Shown here piece after piece: positions 3,001 to 20,140 of a stretch of DNA of 24,000 nucleotides. The stretch is from positions 7,437-31,436 of the forward strand of contig CAUSAK010000018.1 in assembly GCA_963529535.1 (NCBI GenBank), written 5' to 3'. The position numbers were made by a program, and so were the translations under genes. How positions within the stretch are numbered: position 1 is the stretch's first letter; every line of letters starts with the position of its first letter. Below the pieces are notes generated by a model. It worked only from the letters and a program-made list of their open reading frames with translations. It was not told the DNA's origin and did no database searches. The stretch comes from an uncultured Granulicatella sp. Its GTDB lineage: Bacteria > Bacillota > Bacilli > Lactobacillales > Aerococcaceae.

Positions 3001-4272
3001 CAAAATGCAGCGTTTTATACAGAAAATTATTCATTGACGTATGTTGTCAAAGGTGATAGACCAAATGATGATTCAAACGATGCTAAAACACCGGAAAAAG
3101 TAGAAGATATTGTCGAAAATACTAACCAAGTACTAGCCAAGAAATTGACGACATCAGTAGATACGAAAGAAGGTGTTGAGGGCAAAGGGGTATGGCTATT
3201 TGATGGTTGGTATCATGATGAGAACTTTACAAAAGATAGCAAAGTAGAAAGTTTAGTCATTACGCAAGATGAAACAGTTTATGGTAGATGGATATTTACA
3301 CCTTATACTCCAGATGAAAAACCTGAGCGTGATACCATTGAAGTTACGAAAAAACTCAATGGAGATGTTCCATTAAAAGAAACGTTCTTCCTTTTACAAA
3401 AAGAAGTGAAGGGAACATGGAAAAATGTGAGTAAAGTACCATATCGCCTATTGGTAGGGCAAACCAAAGCGATTAAAGTGGAAAAAGATACTAATGCAAC
3501 TTATCGTGTGCTTGAAACGAATAAGTTCGGTAATCAAGTAGCGGAAGAGGGCAGTACTTTTACAATTGATAGCATTAATTATAAAGTTAGCTATAGTGGT
3601 GATCAAACAAATGGTTTTGTGATTACCAATACTCAAATTTATGAACCATCTACACCAAAACCTGTCAAAGAACTGGAAAAAATCATTGTCAATAAAGTAT
3701 GGGGCGATGGAAGCACTAAGCAAGCAAAGGCATACTTTATTGTTGAAGAAAAAGTTGGCGATACTTGGCAAGCAACACGTGAAGTGCCTTATAGCATTTT
3801 AGGTGACAAGGCGACAGAAGTCTTGGTAGAAAAAGGAAAAACCTATCGTGTTAGAGAAACGAATATGACAGGCTTTGACAAAGAAGAAAACGGTCGATTA
3901 ACACGTGAGAAGATTTTGTATTCAGTAACTTATAAGCAAGAAAAAATGGTAGGTACTAAAAAAGATGGAACACCAATTGATGTTACTAAAGTAACGATCA
4001 CGAATAATGAGCTTAAACCAGGTGGGGGAAATGAATATCCAGGTGGATCACCAAATAATGATCCAAAGAAAAACAATGATATCCCTACAATAGAAAAAGA
4101 GAAACCAACGACAACGACAAAAACAACACTCAATAAGCAATTACCACAAACAGGTACAGTTAAGTCAGAAAGTGGAAAAATGGCTTGTGAATGTTTACTT
4201 CTTGTAGGTATTGTAGGTATTATTTTCTTTGGTAGAAAGAGAATGCTTCAGAAAAGAGATGCGTCAATGTGA
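1..4272 (+). CDS. LPXTG-anchored cell-wall surface protein (MSCRAMM-like adhesin), 5'-partial at the window edge
   Basis: Frame 1 has no stop from nt 1 to the TGA at 4270-4272. The TTG at 52 used by the ORF track is therefore probably internal, and the gene continues upstream of the window. C-terminal sorting signal: LPQTG (nt 4141-4155), hydrophobic CLLLVGIVGIIFF, basic tail GRKRMLQKRD. Upstream of it lie a Pro/Thr/Lys-rich wall-spanning stretch (PGGGNEYPGGSPNNDPKKNND...KPTTTTKTT) and two CnaB-like domains. Further upstream are one SdrD-B-like domain (VSGKVYLEDK...TTTDENGEYHLKNYTRGHYFIRV), a FDGWYHDENF...VYGRW Listeria/Bacteroides-type repeat and a DUF11-like segment (LGNKAHYVVTVFNNSTEAVQKISIIDKLP). 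Confidence 0.9.
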   Translation, partial: ARESNISEDNDYYICDYLFDQLTGGQHLTFPFPFSFDPNTNVKTGDKTVVEAEFLVPNGATETAAYQVRKEFKAKVADIATDLVWFLEKEYKNDLKEEYPKPIRYAKVPVKNLTETVLPQGTTQLLKLIPWEYIDLPNEVSGRVGYTIPKNVTFKFIFDNDYLDSISGAEKIDDETAISKQVMQWTDTHTTVLADGSRVNQPGWFTGHDIYLKNVPFNQEIPIKIEYYINYEEDGQKLLDTKTVYIQLEPEEFTGSGGFAFHRVGDRHWFRGNLAKMNPEEKDKPVESANGKLYALFNDKLYYIKEDMMSQGMLFSNEIWNWNNGSEPGKTNGGMVTEIKEIKAELESSGEYFKSFILSSFNGDSEEEQKKAKALETSFENGGNHKVYGIKADGTEVKLIENIKINTKYTIEDKVREYQAFKVVFERPVILDNSRIRLLDYTGLTDAEIQKFKNGTYTDEPVKYSSKLYVKGRTGRLPIRDDVKYEEGVYADPNWNYHLVGALHPVFSELISGNKEVVYQPGGKTFEFRTGLLRNQETAYSNWGPIDKITNAKTVALLPSGIEFDEYRDGTKDYHYQVVKNYKNTGKTAIITTFGDVAIRKTDGYDDQVAVYQLRATKDAKRGENIIETYLIYDNNDVIRPAKLQNYDTQVKDALDMDNDGNKDEIFMRVATTITYVPALEVVLHKEVKNLHDNLDTATSDLDLGNKAHYVVTVFNNSTEAVQKISIIDKLPKAGDKSITPDETGAYKERGSTFSTPLYDFVENIEANKETLKRFDVFYQLEDTDTIEATKEGAWLTKNQVDDISKVKSIKFVLKTGKTINVKETVNFEIPAKLPYDETLDETKDKAVNTAAFSLDNNFYNEGNNVTATFVRYDVSGKVYLEDKTEKDGKYNPKALASGKMSDKPLKGIKVALYKSDTKKPAKTPDDKAIETTTDENGEYHLKNYTRGHYFIRVFKPKSYKKVETNNPADDNWGNTMDSEEAEYADSPSFELDPTNLTSIQNAAFYTENYSLTYVVKGDRPNDDSNDAKTPEKVEDIVENTNQVLAKKLTTSVDTKEGVEGKGVWLFDGWYHDENFTKDSKVESLVITQDETVYGRWIFTPYTPDEKPERDTIEVTKKLNGDVPLKETFFLLQKEVKGTWKNVSKVPYRLLVGQTKAIKVEKDTNATYRVLETNKFGNQVAEEGSTFTIDSINYKVSYSGDQTNGFVITNTQIYEPSTPKPVKELEKIIVNKVWGDGSTKQAKAYFIVEEKVGDTWQATREVPYSILGDKATEVLVEKGKTYRVRETNMTGFDKEENGRLTREKILYSVTYKQEKMVGTKKDGTPIDVTKVTITNNELKPGGGNEYPGGSPNNDPKKNNDIPTIEKEKPTTTTKTTLNKQLPQTGTVKSESGKMACECLLLVGIVGIIFFGRKRMLQKRDASM
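3325..4020 (+). repeat. Two tandem, divergent CnaB-type (isopeptide-domain-like) repeats inside the LPXTG gene
   Basis: Two ~110-aa copies: IEVTKKLNGD...TYRVLETNKFG...FVITNTQ and IIVNKVWGDG...TYRVRETNMTG...VTITNNE. Each has a first-strand Lys, an E-box-like Y-R-V-x-E-T-N and a last-strand I-T-N. Similarity is at protein level only; the DNA copies are diverged. Confidence 0.6.
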
Positions 4273-5652: not shown

Positions 5653-6288
5653 TTACCAAATGTCATAGCGAGCATTGGATTTATTCCAGTGTATTTCTTC
5701 TAAGTATTTTCTAACTTCATTTTTTTGATGATTTTTAAATAAATTTAGGATTGTCTGATGTTCATCATTTGTCGTTTTCAACAAGTTTTGTATCGTTTCA
5801 GGAGTTATTCTTTTGTAGTTTTTACCAACGAATATTTTTTTCTTATTTTTAAGTTCCTGTACCATAATTGAGTTTGTACTTAGTGATATATATACGTTAT
5901 GAAAACTCTCTTGTAGTTCGTTGTATTTTGTATACAATCTATTCTTGATGGAAGAATACATACTATCTATTAAAAATTGCATAACGGAATAATCTTCTTG
6001 AGTTAATTTCTCACAGGTTTCGTATGCTATTTTTCCATCTAAGGTTCCAATAATTTCATAAATATTTTCTACTTCTTCTTGAGAATATTGTTTTAATTTA
6101 AATCCTTTTCGAGGTTCTCTTTCTAATATATTTTCAGAAGCAAGTTGTAGTAATGCTTCTCGGATTGGCGTGCGGCTTAGACCGACATTGTCGGATAAAA
6201 ATTGTTCAGTTATTTTATCAGTAGGTGTTAGATTGCCAAGGGTCACTTGTTCTGAAATAAAATTGTATACTTTTTCTTTAGGTTCCAT
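5653..6288 (-). CDS. GntR-family transcriptional regulator (FadR/FCD-type C-terminal domain)
   Basis: 211 aa. N-terminal GntR winged helix (LSDNVGLSRTPIREALLQLASENILEREPRKGFKL) followed by a ~140-aa helical effector domain. The stop is only 33 nt from the thiolase start, with no terminator between them. Confidence 0.85.
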   Translation of the reverse strand: MEPKEKVYNFISEQVTLGNLTPTDKITEQFLSDNVGLSRTPIREALLQLASENILEREPRKGFKLKQYSQEEVENIYEIIGTLDGKIAYETCEKLTQEDYSVMQFLIDSMYSSIKNRLYTKYNELQESFHNVYISLSTNSIMVQELKNKKKIFVGKNYKRITPETIQNLLKTTNDEHQTILNLFKNHQKNEVRKYLEEIHWNKSNARYDIW

Positions 6289-6349
6289 ATTTTCATTCCT
6301 TTCTACTATAAGTATTACAAAAAAAAAGAAAAATTACAATAAAAACATA

Positions 6350-6378
6350 TTGAAAAAATAAATTGTATATTGTATACT
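6350..6378 (+). promoter_or_regulatory. Candidate sigma-A promoter of the DDAH-like gene with an embedded GntR-type palindromic operator
   Basis: TTGAAA (6350-6355), 17-nt spacer, TATACT (6373-6378). Inside it, GTATA-TTG-TATAC (6365-6377) is a perfect 5-bp inverted repeat of the T-n-GT-N-AC-n-A type used by FadR-subfamily GntR regulators. A second perfect TATAAT at 6395-6400 is an alternative -10; with that choice the palindrome falls at the -35 region. Confidence 0.45.
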
Positions 6379-6419
6379 ATTTGTGTAGAAAAAATATAAT
6401 AAAGGAAGAAGGAAGTAAT

Positions 6420-7187
6420 ATGTTTAAAAATGTTATTGTCAGAGTACCGTCTAGAACGGTTTGTGATGGTTTAACTAGTGCAAATGAAGGTAAACCTATT
6501 TATGAAAAAGCACTAGTACAACACGAAAATTATGTTAGTGCTTTGACTAAAACGGGAGTTAATGTTACAGTGTTGGAACCTAAAGATGAGTTTCCGGATT
6601 CATGTTTTGTAGAAGATGTGGCACTCTGTACAAGTAAGTGTGTGATTATTACTCGTCCAGGTGCATTAAGCCGTCGTAAAGAGGCTGTATTACCGGATAT
6701 GTTGGAAACATTGAAAAGATTCTATGACAATATAGAGTATATTGAAGAGCCTGGAACTGTAGAAGCTGGAGATATTATGATGGTAGGTGATCATTTTTAT
6801 ATTGGGTTATCCGCTCGTACTAATGAAGCCGGGGCAAAACAAATGATTTCTATCTTAGAAAAGTATGGTTTAAGTGGACAAATGGTACATATGAGTGAAA
6901 TGCTTCATCTTAAAACAGGATTGGCGTATCTTGAAAACAATAATTTATTAGTTGCAGGAGAGTTTAAGACAGCTCCTGAATTCGAAAAATATAATAAGAT
7001 TGAGATTGAGATGAATGAAGCATATGGTGCGAATTGCATTTGGGTTAATGATTATGTGATTGTGCCAGAAGGATATCCAAACGTACAAAAAGCGATTGAA
7101 AATTTGGGTTATAAAGTGTTAGTAGTTGATACTTCCGAATTTAGAAAAATTGACGGTGGACTTAGTTGTTTATCATTGCGATTCTAA
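6420..7187 (+). CDS. Dimethylarginine dimethylaminohydrolase (DDAH) family / pentein-superfamily guanidino-group hydrolase
   Basis: Start moved from 6363 to the ATG at 6420 (MFKNVIVRVPS...). GGAAGAAGGAAG RBS lies at 6404-6415, and the 6363 start would sit inside the promoter. 255 aa, typical DDAH size. Family hallmarks: N-terminal VIVRVPS, FVEDVA, HLKTG (His) and C-terminal DGGLSCLSLRF with the nucleophile Cys. Confidence 0.8.
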   Translation: MFKNVIVRVPSRTVCDGLTSANEGKPIYEKALVQHENYVSALTKTGVNVTVLEPKDEFPDSCFVEDVALCTSKCVIITRPGALSRRKEAVLPDMLETLKRFYDNIEYIEEPGTVEAGDIMMVGDHFYIGLSARTNEAGAKQMISILEKYGLSGQMVHMSEMLHLKTGLAYLENNNLLVAGEFKTAPEFEKYNKIEIEMNEAYGANCIWVNDYVIVPEGYPNVQKAIENLGYKVLVVDTSEFRKIDGGLSCLSLRF

Positions 7188-7220
7188 CATTTAGATGGTA
7201 ATTGGATGAAATGTGTGATA

Positions 7221-7253
7221 GGCAATCAACTGTTAAAGTTGGTTGCCTTTTTT
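7221..7253 (+). terminator. Intrinsic terminator / attenuator between the DDAH-like gene and the permease
   Basis: GGCAATCAAC (7221-7230) pairs with GTTGGTTGCC (7238-7247): 10 bp with one G-U, 7-nt loop, followed by TTTTTT (7248-7253). Only about 7 nt separate the T-run from the permease RBS GGAGGTGGAG (7261-7270). Confidence 0.6.
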
Positions 7254-7273
7254 GATAACAGGAGGTGGAGATA

Positions 7274-8686
7274 ATGAAACAAGATGGTAAGTTATCATTA
7301 ATATCGCTTATTGGGATTATCATGAGTGCTATTATTGGAGCAGGAATATTTAATCTCATGAAAGAGATGGCGAGTGTCGCTTCAGTTGGTGCAACGATGA
7401 TTGGCTGGATTGTTACAGGAATAGGGATGGGTAGTTTAGCGCTTTGTATGCTTACATTAAATACTGCTAGACCTGATTTAGATGCAGGAATTTTTAGTTA
7501 TGCTAGGGAAGGGTTTGGAGATTATATAGGATTTAATTCGGTATGGGGGTATTGGATATCCGTTATTATTGGTAATGTAGCATTTGGGACATTATTATTT
7601 AGTGCGCTTGGATATTTTTTCCCGATTTTTGGTGATGGACAAAATATTGCATCCATTATTGGGGCTTCTGTTTTACTTTGGATTATTCATTATATGTTAT
7701 TGAAGGGTTTAGACAAAGCCGCATTACTTAACGCAATTGTGATGTTAGCAAAACTGATTCCATTAGTTATTTTTTTAATTTGTATCGTTACTGCATTTAA
7801 AATCAATTTGTTTACTATAGATTTTTGGGGAAATAATGTATTAGATGGAGATTTGGGTAGTGTTGTTGAACAAGTAAAAGGAAGTATGTTAGTTACTGTG
7901 TGGGTGTTTATTGGAATAGAGGGTGCTGTCGTGTTCTCTGGTCGAGCAAGAAATAGATCAGATGTAGGGAGAGCAACAGTTTTAGCATTTATTGCTATTA
8001 CAATCATATATGCAATGATCACAGTTCTATCGTTTGGTATTCTGACAAGGGCAGATATTGCATCCTTACCAAATCCTGCTATGGGATATGTATTAGAAAG
8101 CATAATTGGAAAAACAGGAGCAACAATAGTAAATGCTGGTGTAATTATATCAATTTTTGGTGCTTGGATTGCGAATACGTTATTAGCTGAAGAGATTGCT
8201 TATCAAGCAGGAGTGCAGAAATTGTTTCCAAAATGTTTTACAGTTGAAAATAAAAATGGTATGCCTGCTGTGTCAACGTTTATTACAAACTTTTTAGTCC
8301 AATTACTTTTAATCTCATTTTTATTTACTAGTGAAGCATATAGTGTTTTATCAAAATTATCTTCTGCAACTATTTTATTACCATACGCGTGCGTTGCTTT
8401 TTTCTTGATGAAAGAAATAGCGAGAAAGAAAATAAAGGCTCAAATAACTACAATTGCTTTAGGTTTGATTTCAACGATATATATGCTGTGGTTAATTATT
8501 TCATCAGGCTATGTGTATGTGATTTTGACTATCTTAGCTTTATGTCCAGGTACATTAATTTATATATATGTAAAAAAATATTACAAAGAGAAAATGTTTA
8601 CAGCTCCAGAGTATGTTATTTTAACTATAGTAGGGATATTATTTATATATGGTTTATGTAATTTATCTACGCTATTAGTAGGTTAA
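7274..8686 (+). CDS. APC-superfamily amino acid transporter, ArcD-like basic amino acid/polyamine antiporter type
   Basis: About 470 aa and highly hydrophobic, with roughly 12-13 TM segments. N-terminal LSLISLIGIIMSAIIGAGIFNLMKEMA resembles the ArcD/APA signature. The ATG at 7274 is preferred over the GTG at 7265 because GGAGGTGGAG ends 3 nt before it. Confidence 0.85.
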   Translation: MKQDGKLSLISLIGIIMSAIIGAGIFNLMKEMASVASVGATMIGWIVTGIGMGSLALCMLTLNTARPDLDAGIFSYAREGFGDYIGFNSVWGYWISVIIGNVAFGTLLFSALGYFFPIFGDGQNIASIIGASVLLWIIHYMLLKGLDKAALLNAIVMLAKLIPLVIFLICIVTAFKINLFTIDFWGNNVLDGDLGSVVEQVKGSMLVTVWVFIGIEGAVVFSGRARNRSDVGRATVLAFIAITIIYAMITVLSFGILTRADIASLPNPAMGYVLESIIGKTGATIVNAGVIISIFGAWIANTLLAEEIAYQAGVQKLFPKCFTVENKNGMPAVSTFITNFLVQLLLISFLFTSEAYSVLSKLSSATILLPYACVAFFLMKEIARKKIKAQITTIALGLISTIYMLWLIISSGYVYVILTILALCPGTLIYIYVKKYYKEKMFTAPEYVILTIVGILFIYGLCNLSTLLVG

Positions 8687-12478: not shown

Positions 12479-12622
12479 AGACTTCCATTTTATAGTAGCA
12501 AAGGACGGCAGCAAACCTTCGGTTTCATGCCTAAACTTCGAGCCTGGGTCTCGAAGTTTCCAGTAATATCAGCCAATTGTGGCTGATATTACTAATGCTA
12601 CTATGGGAAGTCTTACTTTTTT
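12479..12622 (+). other. Structured intergenic element: four-helix junction plus U-tract. Candidate ncRNA, complex rlmN terminator, or MITE-like repeat.
   Basis: The outer stem pairs 12479-12500 (AGACTTCC...ATAGTAGCA) with 12596-13 (TGCTACTAT.GGGAAGTCT): 17 bp around a small internal loop. It encloses three hairpins: 12507-12531 (GGCA..AAACC-TTC-GGTTT..TGCC), 12533-12559 (AAACTTCGAG / CTCGAAGTTT, 10 bp perfect) and 12562-12593 (AGTAATATCAGCC / GGCTGATATTACT, 13 bp perfect). TTTTTT follows at 12617-12622. No credible ORF on either strand. Confidence 0.5.
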
Positions 12623-12771
12623 GAATGGTACTAATTAGAGTACGTCTCCTGTGAATAGTAGTAAAATGATGCAAATAACTTCGCTAATGTAAGTTTTATG
12701 GATACTACTTCTATTATGGGAAGTTTTTCGTTTATGTTTTGATGAATAAATCACTAAAAAAATCACTCATT

Positions 12772-12807
12772 CACCCTCATCTTTAAAGTAGAGATGAGGG
12801 TGTTTTT
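12772..12807 (+). terminator. Orphan rho-independent terminator; left copy of the direct repeat that brackets the PTS island
   Basis: CACCCTCATCT (12772-12782) pairs with AGATGAGGGTG (12792-12802): 11 bp perfect, 9-nt loop, then TTTTT. No CDS ends immediately upstream. 35 of 39 nt are identical to 20101-20140. Confidence 0.7.
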
Positions 12808-12821
12808 ATAGATTCGTCTAC

Positions 12822-12881
12822 TTTTTTCCATATCATATAGAAAAAAATTAACTGTTTTACGAGAAAGCGCTGTCGTATAAT
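12822..12881 (+). promoter_or_regulatory. Candidate promoter region of the PTS/peptidase unit: perfect -10, weak -35, cre-like box, upstream AT-rich inverted repeat
   Basis: TATAAT at 12876-12881 with no good -35, which fits activator dependence. AGAAAGCGCTGTCG (12862-12875) matches the core of the CcpA cre consensus WTGNAANCGNWNNCW at G3, A5, A6, C8, G9, W11 and C14, but mismatches at the three outer positions. Inverted repeat TTTTTTCCATAT-C-ATATAGAAAAAA (12822-12846) is centred about 45 nt upstream of the -10. Confidence 0.35.
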
Positions 12882-12924: not shown

Positions 12925-14775
12925 ATGAGAAAAAGAGAATTAGTAAAAATTTTAGAAAAAGAAGATTTTGTTTCATTAGAACAATTAGCCAGTAAATTAA
13001 CAGTTTCTACTAGAACCATTCGAGAAGATATTAAAACTATCAATCAAGAATCTTTATCTTTTTATATTAATCGTTCAAAAACTAGAGGTTATTACTTAGT
13101 AATTGAAGATATGGATCAATATAGAATGACGTTAGAGGAATGGTCAAAGGAACGTTTTGAAGGTAAAAATAGTAGGATCCATTCGATTATTGTTTTTTTA
13201 TTATTGAATAATAACTTTGTTACTAATAAACAATTAGCAGAGATTTTCTCGATTAGTATTGGACAGGTGAAAAAAGATACTATAAAAATAGCAGAGCAAT
13301 TAGCAAGTGAAGGATTATTCTTAGAAAGAAAATCACATTATGGGGTAAAAATTACTGGAAATTTATATGACAAATTCAAACTTTTGGAAAAATATTCTAA
13401 AGATTTGCAATCTTATATTGTTGAAAAAATAGAGGAAATTATTACCCCAAAAATTGAATCAGAAATAACACAGTGTACAGTGCTGATTTGTCAAGCATAT
13501 CAATTAAAAATAGATGGAGAAATAGCTAAGTTAATTCAAAGATGGTTAGAGATAATTTTAATCTATTATCAAGAAAATAGTTTATCTTTAGAAAAGTTGG
13601 ATATGGAAGAAATTATTGTTATAAGGAATATTTTAAATAAATTTGAATTGATTAAACACTGTGATTCATATTCTTATCTTTTATATCAATTGTTGTTAGA
13701 CTATCAATCTGATAGATTATTTCAACAAACAGAGTTGAAAACGTTTTTATATATTTTGTATAAAGAAGTGGATGATAAGTTTAATACGAATTTTGTGAAT
13801 GATATTGATTTTATGCGAATGATTCAGTTGCATATAGCGTTTATGTTAGAGAGAAAACAAGTGAATGATTTCCAGGATAATTTTATTATCAAAACTATGG
13901 AAAGAGAATTTCCGGCAATAATGAATGCTGCAATTCTTGTTGTTAAAAGAATTGAAAGTAAGTATCAGGTTGTTATTAATCAGGAAGAAATAGGTTACTT
14001 AACTTCTCATATGGCGGTTTCTTATGAAAAACAAAATGAAAGAAGAAATAGAAAATATTACAGAATTGGATTGGTTTGTAGTTCAGGAGGAGGAATTGCA
14101 CAATTAATGTCTTTAAAATTCACTAGAATTTTTCCAAATTCTGAAATAAAAAGTTTCACCATTTACCAAAAAGGAGAAATCACGGAATTTAATCCAACAT
14201 TATTATTTTCTATTACACCATTAGATTTAAATATTAATTGTCCAGTCATTCAAATTGGAGAAATATTAGGAGAACTAGATTACTTTAGCATTCAAAATAA
14301 TCTTGAATTATTAACTGAACTAGGAACATTAGTAGATAGTAACGAAAAGTTTATAGATATGATATCTTCAGAGTATTTTTCAATTAATGATTTTGAAGAT
14401 TATGAACAATTATTGCATCATGTAGCTGGAAAAATAGAAAGTAACATGAATATTCGAGGGTATGAAAATTCTATTTTAGAAAGAGAAAATTATGTATCCA
14501 CAGTCTATGAAAATGGAATTGCTATCCCCCACCCAATGAATATGAATAGTTCAGAAAATATTATCAGTGTAACATTGTTGCCAAAACCAATACTTTATAA
14601 GCAAAAGAAAATTAAAGTAGTATTCATGTTAGCTTTAAAATCAGGGCAAGTAGAGTTACATCAATATTTATCGAAAAAATTGTATGGACTAATGCAACAT
14701 AGATCATTAGTGAGTGAGTTGTCAAAATGTCAAAATTTTCAAGAGTTTATAAAATTAATAAAGATATATCTTTAA
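12925..14775 (+). CDS. PRD-domain transcriptional activator of the MtlR/LicR/ManR type (HTH - PRD - EIIB-like - EIIA-like)
   Basis: 616 aa. N-terminal DeoR-like HTH (LSLEQLASKLTVSTRTIREDIKTIN), then a second wHTH (VTNKQLAEIFSISIGQVKKD). PRD histidines sit in IQLHIAFMLER and GYLTSHMAVS. EIIB(Gat)-like Cys is in RIGLVCSSGGGIAQLM. The C-terminal EIIA(Mtl/Fru)-like domain carries GIAIPHP. AGGAGGG RBS lies upstream. Confidence 0.85.
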   Translation: MRKRELVKILEKEDFVSLEQLASKLTVSTRTIREDIKTINQESLSFYINRSKTRGYYLVIEDMDQYRMTLEEWSKERFEGKNSRIHSIIVFLLLNNNFVTNKQLAEIFSISIGQVKKDTIKIAEQLASEGLFLERKSHYGVKITGNLYDKFKLLEKYSKDLQSYIVEKIEEIITPKIESEITQCTVLICQAYQLKIDGEIAKLIQRWLEIILIYYQENSLSLEKLDMEEIIVIRNILNKFELIKHCDSYSYLLYQLLLDYQSDRLFQQTELKTFLYILYKEVDDKFNTNFVNDIDFMRMIQLHIAFMLERKQVNDFQDNFIIKTMEREFPAIMNAAILVVKRIESKYQVVINQEEIGYLTSHMAVSYEKQNERRNRKYYRIGLVCSSGGGIAQLMSLKFTRIFPNSEIKSFTIYQKGEITEFNPTLLFSITPLDLNINCPVIQIGEILGELDYFSIQNNLELLTELGTLVDSNEKFIDMISSEYFSINDFEDYEQLLHHVAGKIESNMNIRGYENSILERENYVSTVYENGIAIPHPMNMNSSENIISVTLLPKPILYKQKKIKVVFMLALKSGQVELHQYLSKKLYGLMQHRSLVSELSKCQNFQEFIKLIKIYL

Positions 14776-14788
14776 AGGAGTGAGTTTA

Positions 14789-15829
14789 ATGGATGAACAA
14801 TTTTTGGGTAAACTTTCCAATGCAGATGCCTTGGCTGGTGATGAAGAGGAAGTGAGAGAACTTATTAGGAAAAGACTAGCTCATTTAGAATTAAGCGAGC
14901 AGGTAGATGGATTAGGCAGTATTATTTTTGGGAAAGTCAATGAAAAAAACACAAAAAGTGTTATGTTATGTGCTCACATGGATGAGGTTGGATTTTTGGT
15001 GAGAAGTGTAGATCCTTTTGGTTTACTTCATCTAATGAAGGTAGGGGGAGTACAAAATTATGGTCAATCTTATCAACATGTTAGAGTGACAACGAGGGAT
15101 AGAAAAAAAATACCAGGGATTACATTTGCAGCGTATAAAGATAATATTGTTGATTATGTATTTGCAGATGTTGGTGCTAATAGTCAAGAAGAAGTTGAAA
15201 AAATCGGGATTAGTATAGGAGATATGGTTACATTTTCAACGAACTTCCAAAAATATTCGGCGGAAAATATATATTCTGGAAAAGCAATGGATAATCGATT
15301 AGCTTGTTATATTTTATGTTCTTTAGCTGAAAAATTAGAAAATGTTTCTTTACCATATAATTTGTACTTTGCATTTACAAGTAGTGAAGAAGTGGGAATT
15401 AGAGGTGCTAAAACGGCTACTCAATTAATAAATCCAGATATTGTTTATGTAATTGATGTTGCTACTGCTTCAAATCAATTAAAACGAGATCATTCTAATA
15501 AACGACAAGTTGGAAAGGGACCTATGATTACTTTATTTGATAGAACTCTTTCGCCAAATCGAAAAATGGCAAATCATTTTAGAGATTTTGCATCGAATCA
15601 TAAAATTCCACTTCAAGAAGATATGTTTAATATGGGTGGAACGGATGGTGGAGAAGCTCATAAAGTGAATCAAGGGAAACCGACTTTGGTTACGATTGTT
15701 CCAGTACGATATGGGCATTCCACGACATCATTAGTTAGTTCGAGTGATGTAGATTTAATGGAAGAGCTTTATTATAGGTTATTAAAAAGCTTAACTGAAG
15801 AAATGATTGTTGAGTTTGAAAAATTTTAA
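14789..15829 (+). CDS. M42-family metallo-aminopeptidase (FrvX/YpdE/SgcX/PepA/CelM family)
   Basis: M42 metal-ligand motifs: CAHMDEVGF, GKAMDNRLA, TSSEEVGIRGA, VIDVA, GGTDGG. The ATG at 14789 is preferred because AAAGGAG (14774-14780) lies 8 nt upstream. It begins 14 nt after the regulator stop. Confidence 0.85.
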   Translation: MDEQFLGKLSNADALAGDEEEVRELIRKRLAHLELSEQVDGLGSIIFGKVNEKNTKSVMLCAHMDEVGFLVRSVDPFGLLHLMKVGGVQNYGQSYQHVRVTTRDRKKIPGITFAAYKDNIVDYVFADVGANSQEEVEKIGISIGDMVTFSTNFQKYSAENIYSGKAMDNRLACYILCSLAEKLENVSLPYNLYFAFTSSEEVGIRGAKTATQLINPDIVYVIDVATASNQLKRDHSNKRQVGKGPMITLFDRTLSPNRKMANHFRDFASNHKIPLQEDMFNMGGTDGGEAHKVNQGKPTLVTIVPVRYGHSTTSLVSSSDVDLMEELYYRLLKSLTEEMIVEFEKF

Positions 15830-15846
15830 GAAAGGATGTGAAATAA

Positions 15847-16155
15847 ATGAATGAACAGGAAATTATTCAAATTATAGCAAACTCTGGTGAAAGTAAAATG
15901 AAATCATTTGAAGCGTTAAAATGTGTGAAAAATAAAGATTTTAAAAAAGCAAGAGATCTTCTTAAAGAATCTAGATTGATTGATTTAGAGGCTCATAATG
16001 CACAAACTAAAATTATTGCTCAGGCATTAGACCCAGAAGCTAAAGATGCAGTTACGTTATTAATGGTTCATGCTCAAGATCATTATATGACTAGCCAACT
16101 TGCGAGAGATTTAATTGAAGCTTTAATAGATGTTTTTGAAGAAAAAGAGAAATAG
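15847..16155 (+). CDS. PTS lactose/cellobiose-family EIIA component
   Basis: 102 aa and all-helical. LacF/ChbA/CelC-type pattern: ANSGESKMKSFEAL...AHNAQTKII...LLMVHAQDHYMT, with the phosphorylatable His in VHAQDH. Confidence 0.85.
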   Translation: MNEQEIIQIIANSGESKMKSFEALKCVKNKDFKKARDLLKESRLIDLEAHNAQTKIIAQALDPEAKDAVTLLMVHAQDHYMTSQLARDLIEALIDVFEEKEK

Positions 16156-16170
16156 GAGGATTTGATTATT

Positions 16171-16509
16171 ATGAAAATTTTATTATGTTGTGCAGGTGGA
16201 TTTTCAACTAATATGTTGATGCAAAATATGAAGAAGGTTGTTAAACAAAGTGAAAAATTAAATGAAGAAGACTTTGATTTTACTGCAATCCCTGCAGATT
16301 CATTAGAAGGGATTGTGGAAAATTGGGATATTGTGTTAATAGGACCACAAATTGCCCATAAAATTGATTTTATTCATTCAGTTATTGATCCATTAGATAT
16401 TCCATGTGCAGTAATTGATAAAGATGTATATGGTCAAATGGATGGAGCGACAGTAATGAAATTAGCTTTAGTAACGTATAAAAAACATCAATTATCAAAA
16501 CAAAAATAA
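16171..16509 (+). CDS. PTS lactose/cellobiose-family EIIB component
   Basis: MKILLCCAGGFSTNML carries the active-site Cys loop of ChbB/CelA-type EIIB. The ATG at 16171 is preferred because AGGAGGA (16154-16160) lies 10 nt upstream. Confidence 0.85.
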   Translation: MKILLCCAGGFSTNMLMQNMKKVVKQSEKLNEEDFDFTAIPADSLEGIVENWDIVLIGPQIAHKIDFIHSVIDPLDIPCAVIDKDVYGQMDGATVMKLALVTYKKHQLSKQK

Positions 16510-16524
16510 AAAGGAGTGACTGTG

Positions 16525-17847
16525 ATGTTTGAGAAATTTTCAGAATTCATGAATCGTTTTTTCTTGCCTCTTGCAAGAAAAGTTGATAATCAACCACATC
16601 TTAGCGCTATTAAAGCGGGAATGGTGGCGATGACACCATTTACAATTCTAGGTAGTTTTTTTGCAATACTACCAGCCTTACCTAACATGTTAGGAGAAGA
16701 AAATGCGGTTAGCCAATTTATTACTACTAATGCAGAATTATTTGATTTACCTGTTACTCTTTCAATAGGTTTGATCGGATTGTATGCATGTTTGGCAATT
16801 TCTTATAATTTAGGGAAATTTTACAAATTATATATACCAGGGTGTATGACTTTAGCTACATTTGCATTCTTATTCATGGTTGCAACATTTAATGAACAAG
16901 GGCATTTGATTCTAAAAAATTTAGGTGCTAGAGGTCTCTTTACAGCTATGTTGGTAGCCTTAGCTACAGTAGAATTATATAATTTCTGTAAAAAACGTAA
17001 TTTAACGATTAGAATGCCTGAAGGTGTTCCTGATTTTGTTTCACAATCTTTTGAATTAATTCCAGTAACTTTAATTGTGGGTGGTACATTTATTGTTTTA
17101 CGTTTTGTATTTTTAAATATGATTGGAGAGTTACCACCAACGATTTTAACACGCTTTTTAACTCCGCTAGTAGGTAGTATGGATAATCCTTGGGCGGTAT
17201 TAGTTTTAAATTTTGCAATTTGTACAATTTTCTTCTTTGGTATTCATTCATCAGTGTTTAGTCCAATTACTCGTCCAATTATGGTAGCTTTTATTGCTGA
17301 AAATATTGCAGCAATGCAAGCTGGAGAACCACTTCCTCACTTTTATACTGCAGGAACTTCAAGTGCTTTCTTTGGATTTACAGGATGTGGAATTAGTATT
17401 GGGTGTATTGTAGCTTGTATGTTATCTAAAAATAAAAGATACCAACAAATCGGAAAAGTATCTCTTTTCCCAGCTTTATTTGGTATTAATGAACCAATTT
17501 TATTTGGAGCACCAATTATTTTAAATCCTATTATGTTTATCCCTCATGTTTTTGGTGGCGCTATAATAGGGACATTTCCAATGTTTTTAATGCACTGGGG
17601 ACTTTTAAACAAACCAATTTTTGACCCTCCGTATGTGGGTATTTTCTTAGAAGGATTTTTAACGAATGGGGATTGGCGTACAATCATTGTATGTGCAATT
17701 CAATTAGTTGCGGCTGTTGCAATATATTGGCCATTCTTTAAAATTATGGAAAAGCAGGATGAACTTGAAACATTAAAACAAAATAATAAAGATATATTCA
17801 CTAAAGAAGAAGAAAATCTTTTAGATGATTTAGATTTAGATTTTTAG
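16525..17847 (+). CDS. PTS lactose/cellobiose-family EIIC permease
   Basis: About 440 aa polytopic membrane protein with the typical EIIC(Lac) start FMNRFFLPLARKVDNQPHLSAIKAGM. Also has NEPILFG and a C-terminal hydrophilic acidic tail. AAGGAG (16511-16516) lies 8 nt before the ATG at 16525. Confidence 0.9.
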   Translation: MFEKFSEFMNRFFLPLARKVDNQPHLSAIKAGMVAMTPFTILGSFFAILPALPNMLGEENAVSQFITTNAELFDLPVTLSIGLIGLYACLAISYNLGKFYKLYIPGCMTLATFAFLFMVATFNEQGHLILKNLGARGLFTAMLVALATVELYNFCKKRNLTIRMPEGVPDFVSQSFELIPVTLIVGGTFIVLRFVFLNMIGELPPTILTRFLTPLVGSMDNPWAVLVLNFAICTIFFFGIHSSVFSPITRPIMVAFIAENIAAMQAGEPLPHFYTAGTSSAFFGFTGCGISIGCIVACMLSKNKRYQQIGKVSLFPALFGINEPILFGAPIILNPIMFIPHVFGGAIIGTFPMFLMHWGLLNKPIFDPPYVGIFLEGFLTNGDWRTIIVCAIQLVAAVAIYWPFFKIMEKQDELETLKQNNKDIFTKEEENLLDDLDLDF

Positions 17848-17856
17848 GTGAGTGGT

Positions 17857-18912
17857 ATGGATAAAATTGACAAGATAAGACAAATGATAAAATATAAAAA
17901 ATTGGACGCAATAATCATTACTAATAAAACTACTAAACAATATTTAGGTGCTGTAACAGGAAGTGGATCTATTTTAGTAATTACATTAGATGAATGCATT
18001 CAATTTATGGATGGACGATATCAGAATGAAACATGTATGATTGAAAATGTTGTTAATAAGGTATTATCTAATCGAGATTATTTTACTCCTATTATGGAAT
18101 TTTTTAAAAAGAATCATTTCATAAAAATTGGTGTTGAAAATGAAGGACTATCAATTCAAAAATATTTATTACTGTCTGAACAATTCGAAATTCATCAAAT
18201 CGGAGAAGATATTGTTAAAATTAGAATGATTAAAGACAAAGAGGAAATTCGAAAAATTCAAATTTCTTGTGAATTGACAGATCAAATTTTGTTGAATGTG
18301 TTACCACAAATCAGAGTTGGAATGACGGAAAAAGAATTAGTAGGAATTATTTACAATGAATGTTTTAAATCTGGAGCTGATCGATTATCATTTGAACCTA
18401 TTGTAGCTAGTGGATGGAGAGGTTCTTTACCTCACGGAAGACCTACAAATAAAATTATTCAAAAAGGAGAGCTTGTTACCATTGATTTTGGCATTGTTAT
18501 AGATCATTATCAATCGGATATGACTAGAACGGTAGGAATTAAATATGTAGAGCAAGAGTTAGAAAATATCTATAATGTTGTAAAAAAAGCCCAACAAGCT
18601 GCTGTAGATTTTGTTAGACCCGGAGTTGTTGCTAGTACTGTTGATGAAATAGCAAGAAATATTATATCTGAATCTGGATATGGTGAGTATTTTACACATG
18701 GATTAGGTCATGGAATAGGAATCGGAGGAGATTACCCTATGATGAATTCAACGAGCAGTACTGTTTTGCAAGAGAATATGGTCTTAACTTGTGAACCTGG
18801 AATTTATGTTCCAAAACTAGGTGGAGTAAGAATTGAAGATGTGGTTTGTGTACTATCAGACAGAGGAGAGGCTTTAACTAAAAGTGATAAATCATTAATA
18901 ATGGTGGGATGA
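17857..18912 (+). CDS. M24B-family Xaa-Pro aminopeptidase/dipeptidase (PepP/PepQ/YpdF-like)
   Basis: Pita-bread metal ligands: DFGIVIDHYQSDMTRT (D, D), HGLGHGIG (H), LTCEPGIY (E), VRIEDVV (E). An N-terminal creatinase-like domain is present. The ATG at 17857 follows AGGTGA (17846-17851). The GTG at 17848 is possible but has no RBS. Confidence 0.85.
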   Translation: MDKIDKIRQMIKYKKLDAIIITNKTTKQYLGAVTGSGSILVITLDECIQFMDGRYQNETCMIENVVNKVLSNRDYFTPIMEFFKKNHFIKIGVENEGLSIQKYLLLSEQFEIHQIGEDIVKIRMIKDKEEIRKIQISCELTDQILLNVLPQIRVGMTEKELVGIIYNECFKSGADRLSFEPIVASGWRGSLPHGRPTNKIIQKGELVTIDFGIVIDHYQSDMTRTVGIKYVEQELENIYNVVKKAQQAAVDFVRPGVVASTVDEIARNIISESGYGEYFTHGLGHGIGIGGDYPMMNSTSSTVLQENMVLTCEPGIYVPKLGGVRIEDVVCVLSDRGEALTKSDKSLIMVG

Positions 18913-18914
18913 AA

Positions 18915-20096
18915 ATGAATCAGTTTGATAAGGAATTTGATAGGAGCATAACAGGAACTAGAAAGTGGAATCCAAATTTGCTTAGAGAAAAAAATCCAAA
19001 AGGTAGTGATATTATTGCGATGGATTTAGCTGATATCGATTTTGAATGCGCACCTTCTATAAAAGAGGCGTTAGTAAAAAGAGCTTTAATGCCTGATTAT
19101 AGTTATACTTTTGTTCCCGATAGTTTCTATGATGCAGTTATTGATTGGAATAAAAGATATTTTGAATTAACTATAAAAAAAGAATGGATACGTCTAACTT
19201 TTGGCACAATATCAGCATTGCATAATATTGTTCAGGCATTAACTGATATAGGAGATTATGTAATGATTCATACACCGGCATATGCTCCTTTTGCGGAAGC
19301 GGTAATCCATAATGAAAGAAAATTAATCTGTAATGATTTAGTGTTAAAAAACCAACGTTATTATATTGATTTTGAAAAAATGGACGCAGATATGATAAAG
19401 TATAAAGTGAAATTATTCATACTCTGTAATCCTCAGAACCCTTCAGGAAGAGTTTGGTCATCTCAAGAGCTGAAACAATTGGCTCAAATATGCAAAAAAA
19501 ATCAGGTATATTTAATTTCCGATGAAATCCATCGAGATATTGTTTTTTCAAGTAGCAAATTTACAAGTTTGTGGAACGCTCATAATGATATATTGGATTC
19601 AAGTGTGTTGTGTGTGTCACCTAATAAGGGATTTAATTTAGGTGGGTTGAAAACATCCTATATTGTTGTGCCAAATAAAAAGCTGAGAGAAAAAATTTAT
19701 ACTCGATTATCTGCAAATTATGTTACTTCTCCACATGTTTTTGCAGTTCCGGCAATAGAAGCTGCGTATAGATATGAACACAAATGGTTAGTGGATATGG
19801 TAACATATATTGAAGAAAACCATAGTTATGTTGAAAAATTCATTCATAATTATTTACCAAAATTTAAATTGATGAAAGCAGAATCTTCATTTTTGGTTTG
19901 GATTTATGTGGGTGATGTTCTGAAAACAGAAGAAGAAATAAATGAATTTTTTCAACGTGCTAATTTGACGGTTGTAGTAGGAAGTTACTTTGTATCTAAC
20001 GCTGAGGGGTATGTTCGACTAAATATTGGTATGCAACGATATAAAATTGAAGAAGCGTTTAATAGAATTAGAAGACTATACGACTCGTGTGAATAA
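18915..20096 (+). CDS. PLP-dependent class I/II aminotransferase-fold enzyme, PatB/MalY-type cystathionine beta-lyase (C-S lyase)
   Basis: FDRSITGTRKWN N-terminal motif as in PatB/MalY. Also NPQNPSGRVW, ISDEIHRDIVF and SPNKGFNLGGLK (PLP-Lys context). The start at 18915 follows GGTGGG (18903-18908). The alternative ATG at 18909 overlaps the M24 stop (ATGA); either way the genes are translationally coupled. Confidence 0.8.
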   Translation: MNQFDKEFDRSITGTRKWNPNLLREKNPKGSDIIAMDLADIDFECAPSIKEALVKRALMPDYSYTFVPDSFYDAVIDWNKRYFELTIKKEWIRLTFGTISALHNIVQALTDIGDYVMIHTPAYAPFAEAVIHNERKLICNDLVLKNQRYYIDFEKMDADMIKYKVKLFILCNPQNPSGRVWSSQELKQLAQICKKNQVYLISDEIHRDIVFSSSKFTSLWNAHNDILDSSVLCVSPNKGFNLGGLKTSYIVVPNKKLREKIYTRLSANYVTSPHVFAVPAIEAAYRYEHKWLVDMVTYIEENHSYVEKFIHNYLPKFKLMKAESSFLVWIYVGDVLKTEEEINEFFQRANLTVVVGSYFVSNAEGYVRLNIGMQRYKIEEAFNRIRRLYDSCE

Positions 20097-20103
20097 CCCT
20101 ATT

Positions 20104-20140
20104 CACCCTCATCTTTCAAGTAGGATTGAGGGTGTTTTTT
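20104..20140 (+). terminator. Rho-independent terminator of the PTS/peptidase unit; right copy of the bracketing direct repeat
   Basis: CACCCTCA (20104-20111) pairs with TGAGGGTG (20127-20134), followed by TTTTTT (20135-20140). It is the same sequence as 12769-12807 apart from 4 substitutions, which shorten the stem. Confidence 0.65.

Follow-up and report, generated by a model that had tools for sequence, protein, structure and literature searches.

Why would a bacterial sugar importer be wired to two peptidases and a C-S lyase, and to no glycosidase? This question is raised by a block of seven genes at positions 12925-20096 of a 24,000-nucleotide (nt) stretch of DNA, referred to here as the window, from contig CAUSAK010000018.1 of an uncultured Granulicatella sp. 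(assembly GCA_963529535.1). Operons of the phosphotransferase system (PTS) are usually viewed as sugar-only pathways, in which an importer is followed by a phospho-glycosidase or an isomerase and then by glycolysis. The block encodes a PTS-controlled transcriptional regulator, the enzyme II components EIIA, EIIB and EIIC of a lactose/cellobiose (Lac/Cel) family transporter, an M42 aminopeptidase, an M24B peptidase and a PatB/MalY-family lyase. It is one member of a large family that is conserved and divides into two subtypes, and it is classed here as a PTS operon for catabolism whose set of enzymes is without precedent. With somewhat less than even confidence, the block is read here as a PTS catabolic pathway for a sugar bearing an amino acid or a short peptide.

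In the list of open reading frames (ORFs) and translations of the window, seven + strand ORFs fill 12925-20096. Start codons were picked by their Shine-Dalgarno sites, and the chosen starts match independent gene calls in eight sister contigs (616, 346, 102, 111/112, 440, 351 and 393 amino acids). The intergenic gaps along the block, 5' to 3', are 13, 17, 15, 15, 9 and 2 nt. An alternative ATG of the lyase gene, at 18909, would overlap the stop codon of the M24 gene by 4 nt. On the + strand, an intrinsic terminator at 12769..12807 closes the upstream rlmN unit (fold of -21.1 kcal/mol, z = -5.7), and a second one at 20101..20139, a hairpin followed by a T-run, lies directly after the lyase gene and ends the operon (-16.1 kcal/mol). 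Terminator scanning and folding found no strong internal terminator between the first and the last of the seven genes. From the tight spacing and the terminators on both sides, the seven genes are predicted to form one transcription unit. The initial annotation, made from the sequence alone, had described seven genes with gaps of 17 nt or less and one possible overlap of a start with the preceding stop. The gaps of 2-17 nt agree with this, and the overlap is that of the ATG at 18909. It had also stated that the block lacks a glycosidase and a deacetylase, and the absence extends further than claimed: by Pfam and ORF annotation, neither is encoded anywhere in the window. All seven of its family assignments were recovered with Pfam and NCBIfam, with the exception of one part of the regulator, an EIIB-like domain that Pfam did not detect.

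The regulator (12925..14775, +; 616 amino acids) is composed of an HTH_11/Mga region, a PRD and a C-terminal EIIA domain of the Mtl/Fru type, with Pfam matches to HTH_11 (4e-13), PRD (2e-11), PTS_EIIA_2 (1e-21) and Mga (7e-5). Of the domains that make up PRD-containing activators of the LicR/MtlR/ManR class, Pfam finds the HTH, one PRD and the EIIA domain, and neither a second PRD nor the EIIB-like domain; the translation does contain a VCSSGGG motif. In a pairwise comparison, the regulator has no significant similarity to E. coli FrvR. EIIA (15847..16155, +; 102 amino acids) matches PF02255 at 6e-26 (90.7 bits vs. a cut-off of 27), and EIIB (16171..16509, +; 112 amino acids) matches PF02302 at 1.7e-10 (41.8 vs. 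23.6). The translations contain the EIIA motif HAQDH and the EIIB N-terminal motif LLCCAGGFST, whose His and Cys, respectively, we take to be the phosphoryl-transfer active sites. EIIC (16525..17847, +; 440 amino acids) matches PF02378 (145.7 vs. 30.7) and passes the lacE subfamily model TIGR00410 of NCBIfam (253.5 vs. 236). In an alignment to ChbC (3QNQ), His250 and Glu334, which position the sugar 6-OH, are both conserved. The protein falls below every equivalog cut-off, namely those for cellobiose (TIGR00359, 253 vs. 434), lactose (TIGR00394, 180 vs. 614), PRK09592 (167 vs. 503) and chitobiose (PRK10297, 119 vs. 760). By these sequence comparisons, the window EIIC belongs to a distinct, highly conserved Lac/Cel subgroup.

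Both peptidases resemble enzymes that are encoded in an E. coli PTS operon. The M42 aminopeptidase (14789..15829, +; 346 amino acids; Peptidase_M42 at 1.7e-74) is of the YpdE type and passes the NCBIfam YpdE-type equivalog PRK09961 (421.2 bits vs. 412). With E. coli YpdE it shares 40% identity, and with FrvX 34%; its best solved structure is 1ylo, and the motifs CAHMDEVGF, SSEEVG(I/L)RG and GH are common to it and YpdE. The M24B peptidase (17857..18912, +; 351 amino acids) is of the prolidase/YpdF type and carries the Pfam domains Creatinase_N and Peptidase_M24. It is 36% identical to YpdF and as close to Pyrococcus prolidases, with 1wy2, 5cnx and 1pv9 as the best solved structures. The motifs DFG, SDMTRT, HxxGHxIG, EPGIY and VRIEDVV are common with YpdF, and the five metal ligands (D, D, H, E and E) align. 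Because this protein is below the YpdF and archaeal PepQ equivalog cut-offs (PRK09795, 244 vs. 393; NF040821, 250 vs. 630), its proline specificity is an assumption.

The last gene (18915..20096, +) encodes a predicted PatB/MalY-family C-S (beta-)lyase of 393 amino acids that would depend on pyridoxal phosphate (PLP). It scores just under the cut-off of the PatB model TIGR04350 (336.5 vs. 340) and is 27% identical to E. coli MalY. Its matches in the PDB include 4dgt, 6qp3 (Staphylococcus hominis PatB, among the best at E = 2e-71), 3b1c, 1c7n (cystalysin) and 1d2f (MalY), and its best relatives in the PDB are all C-S lyases. The SPNK motif with the PLP lysine and the YVRLN motif with the carboxylate-binding arginine are both present. 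Because these motifs are kept, the enzyme would be expected to need a free amino acid, with a free alpha-amino and a free alpha-carboxyl group.

Whether the enzymes belong with the importer was addressed by a scan led by EIIC, with one genome per GTDB species, which gave 79 loci; each was searched by tblastn with the seven window proteins. The 69 loci whose EIIC shares 46% or more identity with that of the window are called related loci here, and handles such as L042 denote single loci or contigs. Apart from a single exception (L042), all 69 have the block regulator-M42-IIA-IIB-IIC-M24 or are truncated at the end of a contig. M42 is absent at two contig ends only. M24 is absent twice, once at a contig end and once through a genuine loss (L042, Granulicatella balaenopterae). 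The PatB gene is absent at two contig ends and is non-adjacent in L068, whose EIIC match is also weaker. The regulator occupies the equivalent position in most related loci that have enough upstream sequence. In 12 gammaproteobacterial loci with an EIIC of 31-33% identity, none of the three enzymes (M42, M24 and PatB) was found. A search led by the lyase gave a matching picture: homologues of at least 50% identity fall in the same taxa, and all three contexts that were inspected hold a Lac-type PTS and an M42 gene.

The same cassette occurs in a wide range of hosts. A Granulicatella metagenome-assembled genome (MAG) carries it with an EIIC 96% identical to that of the window, and EIIC homologues of 70-97% identity occur in Enterococcus, Streptococcus, Romboutsia, several Clostridium species and Sarcina. 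An identical seven-gene order, in unrelated surroundings, is seen in Romboutsia ilealis and C. baratii. Equal gene order is also found in Abiotrophia, Enterococcus, Streptococcus cuniculi, Lacticaseibacillus, Peptacetobacter, Thomasclavelia, Bulleidia and Amedibacterium, as well as in two species-representative genomes labelled Clostridioides difficile. In Collinsella (Coriobacteriia), the core is kept and the lyase gene lies upstream on the opposite strand. The flanking genes are unrelated housekeeping genes that differ by genus, so the block is self-contained. The cassette thus appears to be a self-contained, horizontally spread unit in many genera of gut and oral Bacillota and in Collinsella. 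The initial annotation had left it to such comparisons whether the peptidase and lyase genes travel with the PTS genes and whether EIIC clusters with characterized cellobiose or chitobiose transporters. The enzymes are co-conserved with the PTS genes in many genera and in two deep paralogous subtypes, and EIIC lies outside all characterized cellobiose, chitobiose and lactose equivalogs.

Subtype 1 includes the window. Its EIIC proteins are at least 61% identical to the window EIIC and mostly 72-80% (e.g., in Clostridia and Erysipelotrichia), with two Clostridium outliers at 61-62%. Its lyases are 50-57% identical to the window lyase outside Granulicatella and Abiotrophia. EIIB is 75-82% identical in most subtype-1 cassettes, compared to approximately 50% for M42, 42% for M24, 55% for the lyase and 33% for the regulator. 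The transporter is far better conserved than the enzymes, which points to one tightly specified transported molecule; such EIIC identity across bacterial classes implies that this is one specific, ecologically common substrate. In subtype 2, EIIC is 46-58% identical to the window EIIC and the gene order is unchanged. The subtype-2 lyase is from a MalY-like branch of PatB, 23-29% identical to the window lyase and 35-41% to E. coli MalY, and passes TIGR04350 (347.5 vs. 340). Since each subtype uses a different PatB branch while the order is kept, the lyase activity, and not one lineage, appears to have been retained. An RDD-family membrane protein (PF06271, about 190-240 amino acids) is encoded by an eighth gene in 27 subtype-2 loci, where it separates the EIIC and M24 genes or else follows the lyase gene (e.g., L044 8379-9041 and L036 7591-8316). 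Both subtypes are held by C. baratii and by one Peptacetobacter genome, so they are paralogous systems, and they probably handle related but distinct substrates.

The chemistry of the lyase is hinted at by genes that were recruited beside it in separate lineages. In Lacticaseibacillus L044, the lyase gene is directly followed by genes for the enamine/imine deaminase RidA and an L-lactate dehydrogenase, and in Lacticaseibacillus L062 by RidA. In Pseudolactococcus, the lyase gene overlaps at its end with a gene similar to that of L-lactate dehydrogenase. In a Coprobacillaceae MAG, a D-2-hydroxyacid dehydrogenase gene lies 4 nt downstream of the lyase gene, and in a Lactococcus MAG, the M24 and PatB genes are separated by an alanine dehydrogenase gene. 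The coordinates of these recruited neighbours are L044 11304-12629, L011 10714-11721, L034 8531-9511 and L039 9469-10590. Only copies that abut the lyase gene were counted; a D-2-hydroxyacid dehydrogenase near the C. baratii locus L003 is part of a serC-serA-like group and is probably unrelated. The recruited enzymes all handle 2-aminoacrylate, pyruvate or alanine, which fits the alpha,beta-elimination of a beta-substituted three-carbon amino acid. The neighbours therefore point to beta-elimination that yields 2-aminoacrylate and then pyruvate.

Biochemistry is available for a subtype-2 homologue, the MalY of Lactobacillus (Latilactobacillus) sakei LT-13 (Ls-MalY), studied as an isolated enzyme by Kato and Oikawa in 2018, who state that the physiological function of MalY is still being investigated (PMC5845896). 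Ls-MalY binds PLP and acts as a beta-lyase on L-Cys at 95 nmol/min/mg, giving pyruvate, and also on cystine and cystathionine (PMC5845896). For L-Cys, a kcat/Km of roughly 80 s-1 mM-1 is reported. By analogy with this enzyme, the window lyase is predicted to perform PLP-dependent alpha,beta-elimination on Cys-type substrates. The activities of Ls-MalY are low, which suggests that its true substrate was not among the compounds assayed. Ls-MalY also racemises Ala, Arg, Val, Met, Ser and other amino acids (PMC5845896), which raises the idea that PatB is mainly a broad amino-acid racemase and that the operon processes a D-amino-acid glycoconjugate, for example one derived from the cell wall, with D-Ala converted to L-Ala and then to pyruvate. 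The alanine dehydrogenase beside PatB in one locus would suit such a route. The racemase rates, however, are very weak, in the range of nmol/min/mg with a Km of about 150 mM, and ten-fold below the already weak lyase activity (PMC5845896), as is typical of a side reaction. Moreover, RidA beside the lyase fits elimination and not racemisation, and M42 and M24 enzymes are not known to free D-residues. A racemase-based operon is thus considered highly improbable.

The preferred reading, a PTS pathway for a sugar linked to an amino acid or short peptide, would proceed as follows. The Lac/Cel-family EIIABC would import the conjugate and phosphorylate the 6-OH of its sugar. The flow of substrate would relieve the PRD/EIIA regulator of inhibitory phosphorylation, and the operon would be activated. 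In the cytoplasm, the M42 aminopeptidase would strip the residues on the N-terminal side of the modified one, and a proline that follows the modified residue would be taken off by the prolidase-like M24B enzyme. This trimming would leave a free amino acid with a beta-substituent. The PatB-type lyase would then act by alpha,beta-elimination, giving the sugar part and 2-aminoacrylate, which would go on to pyruvate and ammonia. With an O-glycosidic bond, such as that of a glycosyl-serine, the sugar would depart directly as an ordinary sugar 6-phosphate. Such direct release would account for the absence of a glycosidase as well as for the sufficiency of seven genes.

Several properties of the cassette connect the enzymes to what the PTS imports. 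The regulator is PTS-controlled, so the enzymes should be made only when a PTS substrate is present. The enzymes are cytoplasmic, the PTS is the sole transporter of subtype 1 and the unit is portable; most economically, then, the imported compound is what the enzymes act on. The need of the lyase for a free amino acid gives the two exopeptidases a role. In its most specific form, the proposal is that a PLP beta-lyase replaces the glycosidase: a 6-phosphorylated O-glycosyl Ser/Thr (or S-glycosyl Cys) peptide would be trimmed and split into sugar 6-phosphate, pyruvate and ammonia. This specific form is regarded as rather doubtful. Sources of such glycosyl peptides may include host mucin, O-GlcNAc (N-acetylglucosamine) proteins and bacterial glycoproteins. 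An S-linked conjugate would be a better fit to the C-S chemistry of the family, but it would leave a thio-sugar without an obvious fate. Glucosinolates, muropeptides, Amadori compounds and GlcNAc-Asn were set aside on general knowledge, either because the PLP enzyme would have no role or because the N-terminus would be blocked to aminopeptidases. A scheme of this kind had been put forward in the initial annotation, in which a glycosylated amino acid, peptide or thioether conjugate is taken up, trimmed by the peptidases and opened by the lyase. Operon unity, co-conservation, the distinct EIIC and the pyruvate-linked neighbours now support that scheme; the nature of the substrate, the bond that is cleaved and the order of the steps are still matters of proposal.

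A number of points weigh against this pathway. Glycosyl alkoxides are poorer leaving groups than thiolates. To our knowledge, PatB enzymes are known for C-S and not for C-O cleavage, and the known substrates of Lac-family transporters are plain beta-glycosides. The link between the PTS and the enzymes is genomic, the nature of the substrate is deduced from it, and co-transcription is read from gene spacing. M24 is dispensable in two variants, L042 and L096. Because of the glycosidase genes near six subtype-2 loci, described below, it may be that a glycosidase is encoded at another site of the genome. Lastly, the activities of Ls-MalY are low, and free L-Ser is not cleaved by it (PMC5845896).

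In variant L096 (3257-13097, GCA_964261755.1), which adjoins a relaxase gene and an ISL3 transposase gene, the order is a divergent regulator, EIIC, a 147-amino-acid membrane ORF, EIIB, EIIA, M42 and PatB, with no M24. Its PatB has 50-51% identity to the window lyase; next come a Cys-type sulfatase that lacks a signal peptide and a radical S-adenosylmethionine (SAM)/SPASM maturase. The sulfatase hints at a sulfated substrate.

In one bacterial family, the genes upstream of the cassette suggest a different bond. Nine Peptostreptococcaceae loci extend far enough upstream to be judged, and in each of them genes for an AgaS-family isomerase/deaminase and a GatY-type tagatose-bisphosphate aldolase lie directly upstream. 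Loci with such an aga-like cluster are L085 (2027-5977), L001, L015, L017-L020, L022, L023 and L064. The full upstream cluster of Romboutsia consists of a PfkB hexose kinase, a GntR regulator, AgaS and the aldolase, and has no transporter or deacetylase of its own. These neighbours hint at a galacto-configured or amino-sugar product, limited to this family. The substrate could accordingly be an amino sugar that is N-acylated by an aminoacyl or peptidyl amide, such as a bacillithiol-like Cys-glucosamine or another N-aminoacyl hexosamine. The aminopeptidases would free hexosamine 6-phosphate, and the lyase would dispose of the Cys- or Ser-type amino acid as pyruvate, ammonia and sulfide. It is established enzymology that aminopeptidases generally accept aminoacyl-amides, and the cleavage of free L-Cys by Ls-MalY (PMC5845896) is in line with the last step. 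However, the AgaS adjacency is seen in one family only and may be inherited synteny, as other genera have unrelated neighbours, and the AgaS-like protein of the Peptostreptococcaceae is itself below its family cut-off (448 vs. 529). The prolidase-type enzyme would have no role, and we know of no natural compound of this type that is abundant in the gut or the mouth. An amide-linked amino sugar is therefore thought distinctly unlikely, and the glycosyl amino acid or peptide pathway is preferred to it.

The cassette could instead be an ordinary PTS for a beta-glycoside or disaccharide, with the phospho-glycosidase encoded elsewhere and the peptidases and lyase merely co-regulated with it. In that case the enzymes could connect carbon supply with the turnover of peptides and sulfur amino acids, or the lyase could moonlight as a regulator, as MalY does on MalT. 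The EIIC is a genuine Lac/Cel-family member with intact sugar-phosphorylation residues, and the annotation of MalY in E. coli describes negative regulation of MalT. A gene for a glycoside hydrolase family 1 (GH1) 6-phospho-beta-glucosidase lies less than 7 kilobases (kb) from six subtype-2 loci (6 of about 69 related loci), for example at L044 67-3070, L051 265-2697 and L059 13237-14694. The GH1 gene is followed by a ROK kinase gene in L044 and is preceded by a PfkB kinase gene in L051; one of the six loci has a ROK kinase gene directly upstream and in the same orientation. These GH1 genes may form a separate operon, or may be a sign of an extra beta-glucoside on some subtype-2 substrates. The activities of Ls-MalY, moreover, were measured on ordinary amino acids (PMC5845896). 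Against an ordinary PTS, the L. sakei authors saw no MalT homologue (PMC5845896), about 90% of the loci have no GH1 gene, and EIIC is far under every characterized equivalog cut-off. Three cytoplasmic enzymes are fixed in order with the PTS across two phyla, two subtypes and many genomic sites, which is hard to explain without a shared substrate. We consider an ordinary sugar PTS unlikely, and the conjugate pathway is retained as the preferred reading.

The surroundings of the cassette in the window offer some further observations. The terminators at 12769-12807 and 20101-20139 are copies 1 and 2 of a 39-nt direct repeat (family D4), are 90% identical and bracket the cassette, as if the block had been inserted beside the rlmN terminator or had duplicated it. 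The GC content of the cassette is 30.3%, compared to about 34-35% in the flanks. Recent acquisition is not claimed from this composition, as the GC content at third codon positions equals that of the host genes. An empty insertion site was not found in this Granulicatella lineage, where all eight contigs with an identical downstream LysM protein carry the cassette. A putative promoter (12853..12881, +), read from the sequence, has a perfect -10 TATAAT at 12876-12881 and a poor -35, which would fit an activator-dependent promoter. Inside it, at 12862-12875, is the sequence AGAAAGCGCTGTCG, which resembles a catabolite-responsive element (cre). A cre was rejected, as such matches are not above chance (20 found vs. 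32 expected). Upstream of the regulator, no Rfam riboswitch or leader RNA was found, with sub-threshold matches only.

The spacer between rlmN and the regulator gene is 465 nt and contains a 34-nt direct repeat (12590-12623 and 12703-12736, 79% identical; see also 12506-12558) and several hairpins. One spacer hairpin has a sub-threshold Rfam match to a Streptococcus small RNA. In sister contig L087 (1634-2152), an ORF with a PBECR4 domain lies inside this spacer, which thus varies between strains. Other window ORFs that were examined encode housekeeping and surface proteins, namely a thiolase, an HMG-CoA synthase, an asparaginase, RlmN, a LysM/3D protein, PrsA and a class IV aminotransferase. 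In line with a Granulicatella host, the protein clusters into which RlmN and the asparaginase fall include members of that name. A 1406-amino-acid ORF at 52-4272, whose sole Pfam match is one SdrD B-like domain, presumably encodes a large surface protein. A divergent unit at 5653-8686 consists of a GntR/FCD regulator on the minus strand, an amidinotransferase/DDAH-like enzyme and an amino-acid permease, and could serve in the utilization of guanidino compounds.

The cassette bears on a puzzle that is decades old, namely the presence of the peptidases FrvX, SgcX, YpdE and YpdF and the lyase MalY in PTS operons of E. coli. Here, the M42, M24 and MalY/PatB partners are joined in one regulated, self-contained PTS unit. 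Identification of its substrate would reveal a nutrient class for commensals and for relatives of pathogens, possibly host- or food-derived glyco-amino acids. If true, the replacement of a glycosidase by a beta-lyase would mean that glyco-amino acids are catabolized by a new logic, and that there is a new way to break the bond between a sugar and an amino acid. It would also give a function to the M42, M24 and MalY genes of PTS operons and make the E. coli puzzle directly testable.

Among known systems, the chb, cel, lac, lic and gmu operons have the same EIIA, EIIB and EIIC of Transporter Classification family 4.A.3, the same His and Glu of EIIC and a PTS-responsive regulator. A phospho-glycosidase of GH1 or GH4 is part of these operons, in some cases together with a deacetylase. 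The window block differs from them in having neither, and in an EIIC that is under every equivalog cut-off. The E. coli precedents on which the initial annotation had drawn were all verified in MG1655: fryA-ypdE-ypdF-fryC-fryB, malX-malY, frvA-frvB-frvX-frvR and the sgc cluster with sgcX, and the fry/ypd, malXY, frv and sgc products are still annotated as putative there. The fry/ypd operon likewise holds an M42 (YpdE) and an M24B (YpdF) peptidase inside a PTS operon. In contrast to the window block, its PTS is of the fructose family with its own EI/HPr/EIIA fusion protein, and the operon has no lyase; alaC, which encodes an aminotransferase, lies close by but in another unit. The malX-malY pair (with malI) has in common with the cassette a PTS permease that is co-transcribed with a PatB/MalY-family lyase, but MalX is a glucose-family EIIBC and peptidases are absent. 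MalY is best known as a MalT antagonist. The thioalcohol pathway of Staphylococcus hominis PatB (6qp3) uses the same lyase branch. It is a peptidase-assisted route for Cys-Gly conjugates, and differs in that uptake is by a proton-coupled peptide transporter and not by a PTS, with no sugar involved.

In C. difficile, the CcpA paper (PMC3510511) and the CdsB paper mention other PTS systems and MalY and not this cassette. In C. difficile 630, the putative Xaa-Pro aminopeptidase CD2485 is numbered beside the fructose-like PTS CD2486-CD2488 (PMC3510511), so that a Gram-positive host, too, pairs an M24 peptidase with a PTS in the manner of fry/ypd. In a full-text search, nothing was found on the pathway beyond the L. 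sakei MalY paper. The cassette is in part already described there, as the subtype-2 form is drawn as cluster LACBS_00568-00576 of L. sakei LT-13, a strain-specific insertion of ~8 kb with the order PRD regulator, aminopeptidase, IIA, IIB, IIC, RDD protein, aminopeptidase and MalY (PMC5845896). This cluster has the architecture of the window block and equals subtype 2 (compare the L. fuchuensis locus L050), and it differs from the Granulicatella block in the extra RDD-family membrane protein and in the MalY-like branch of its lyase.

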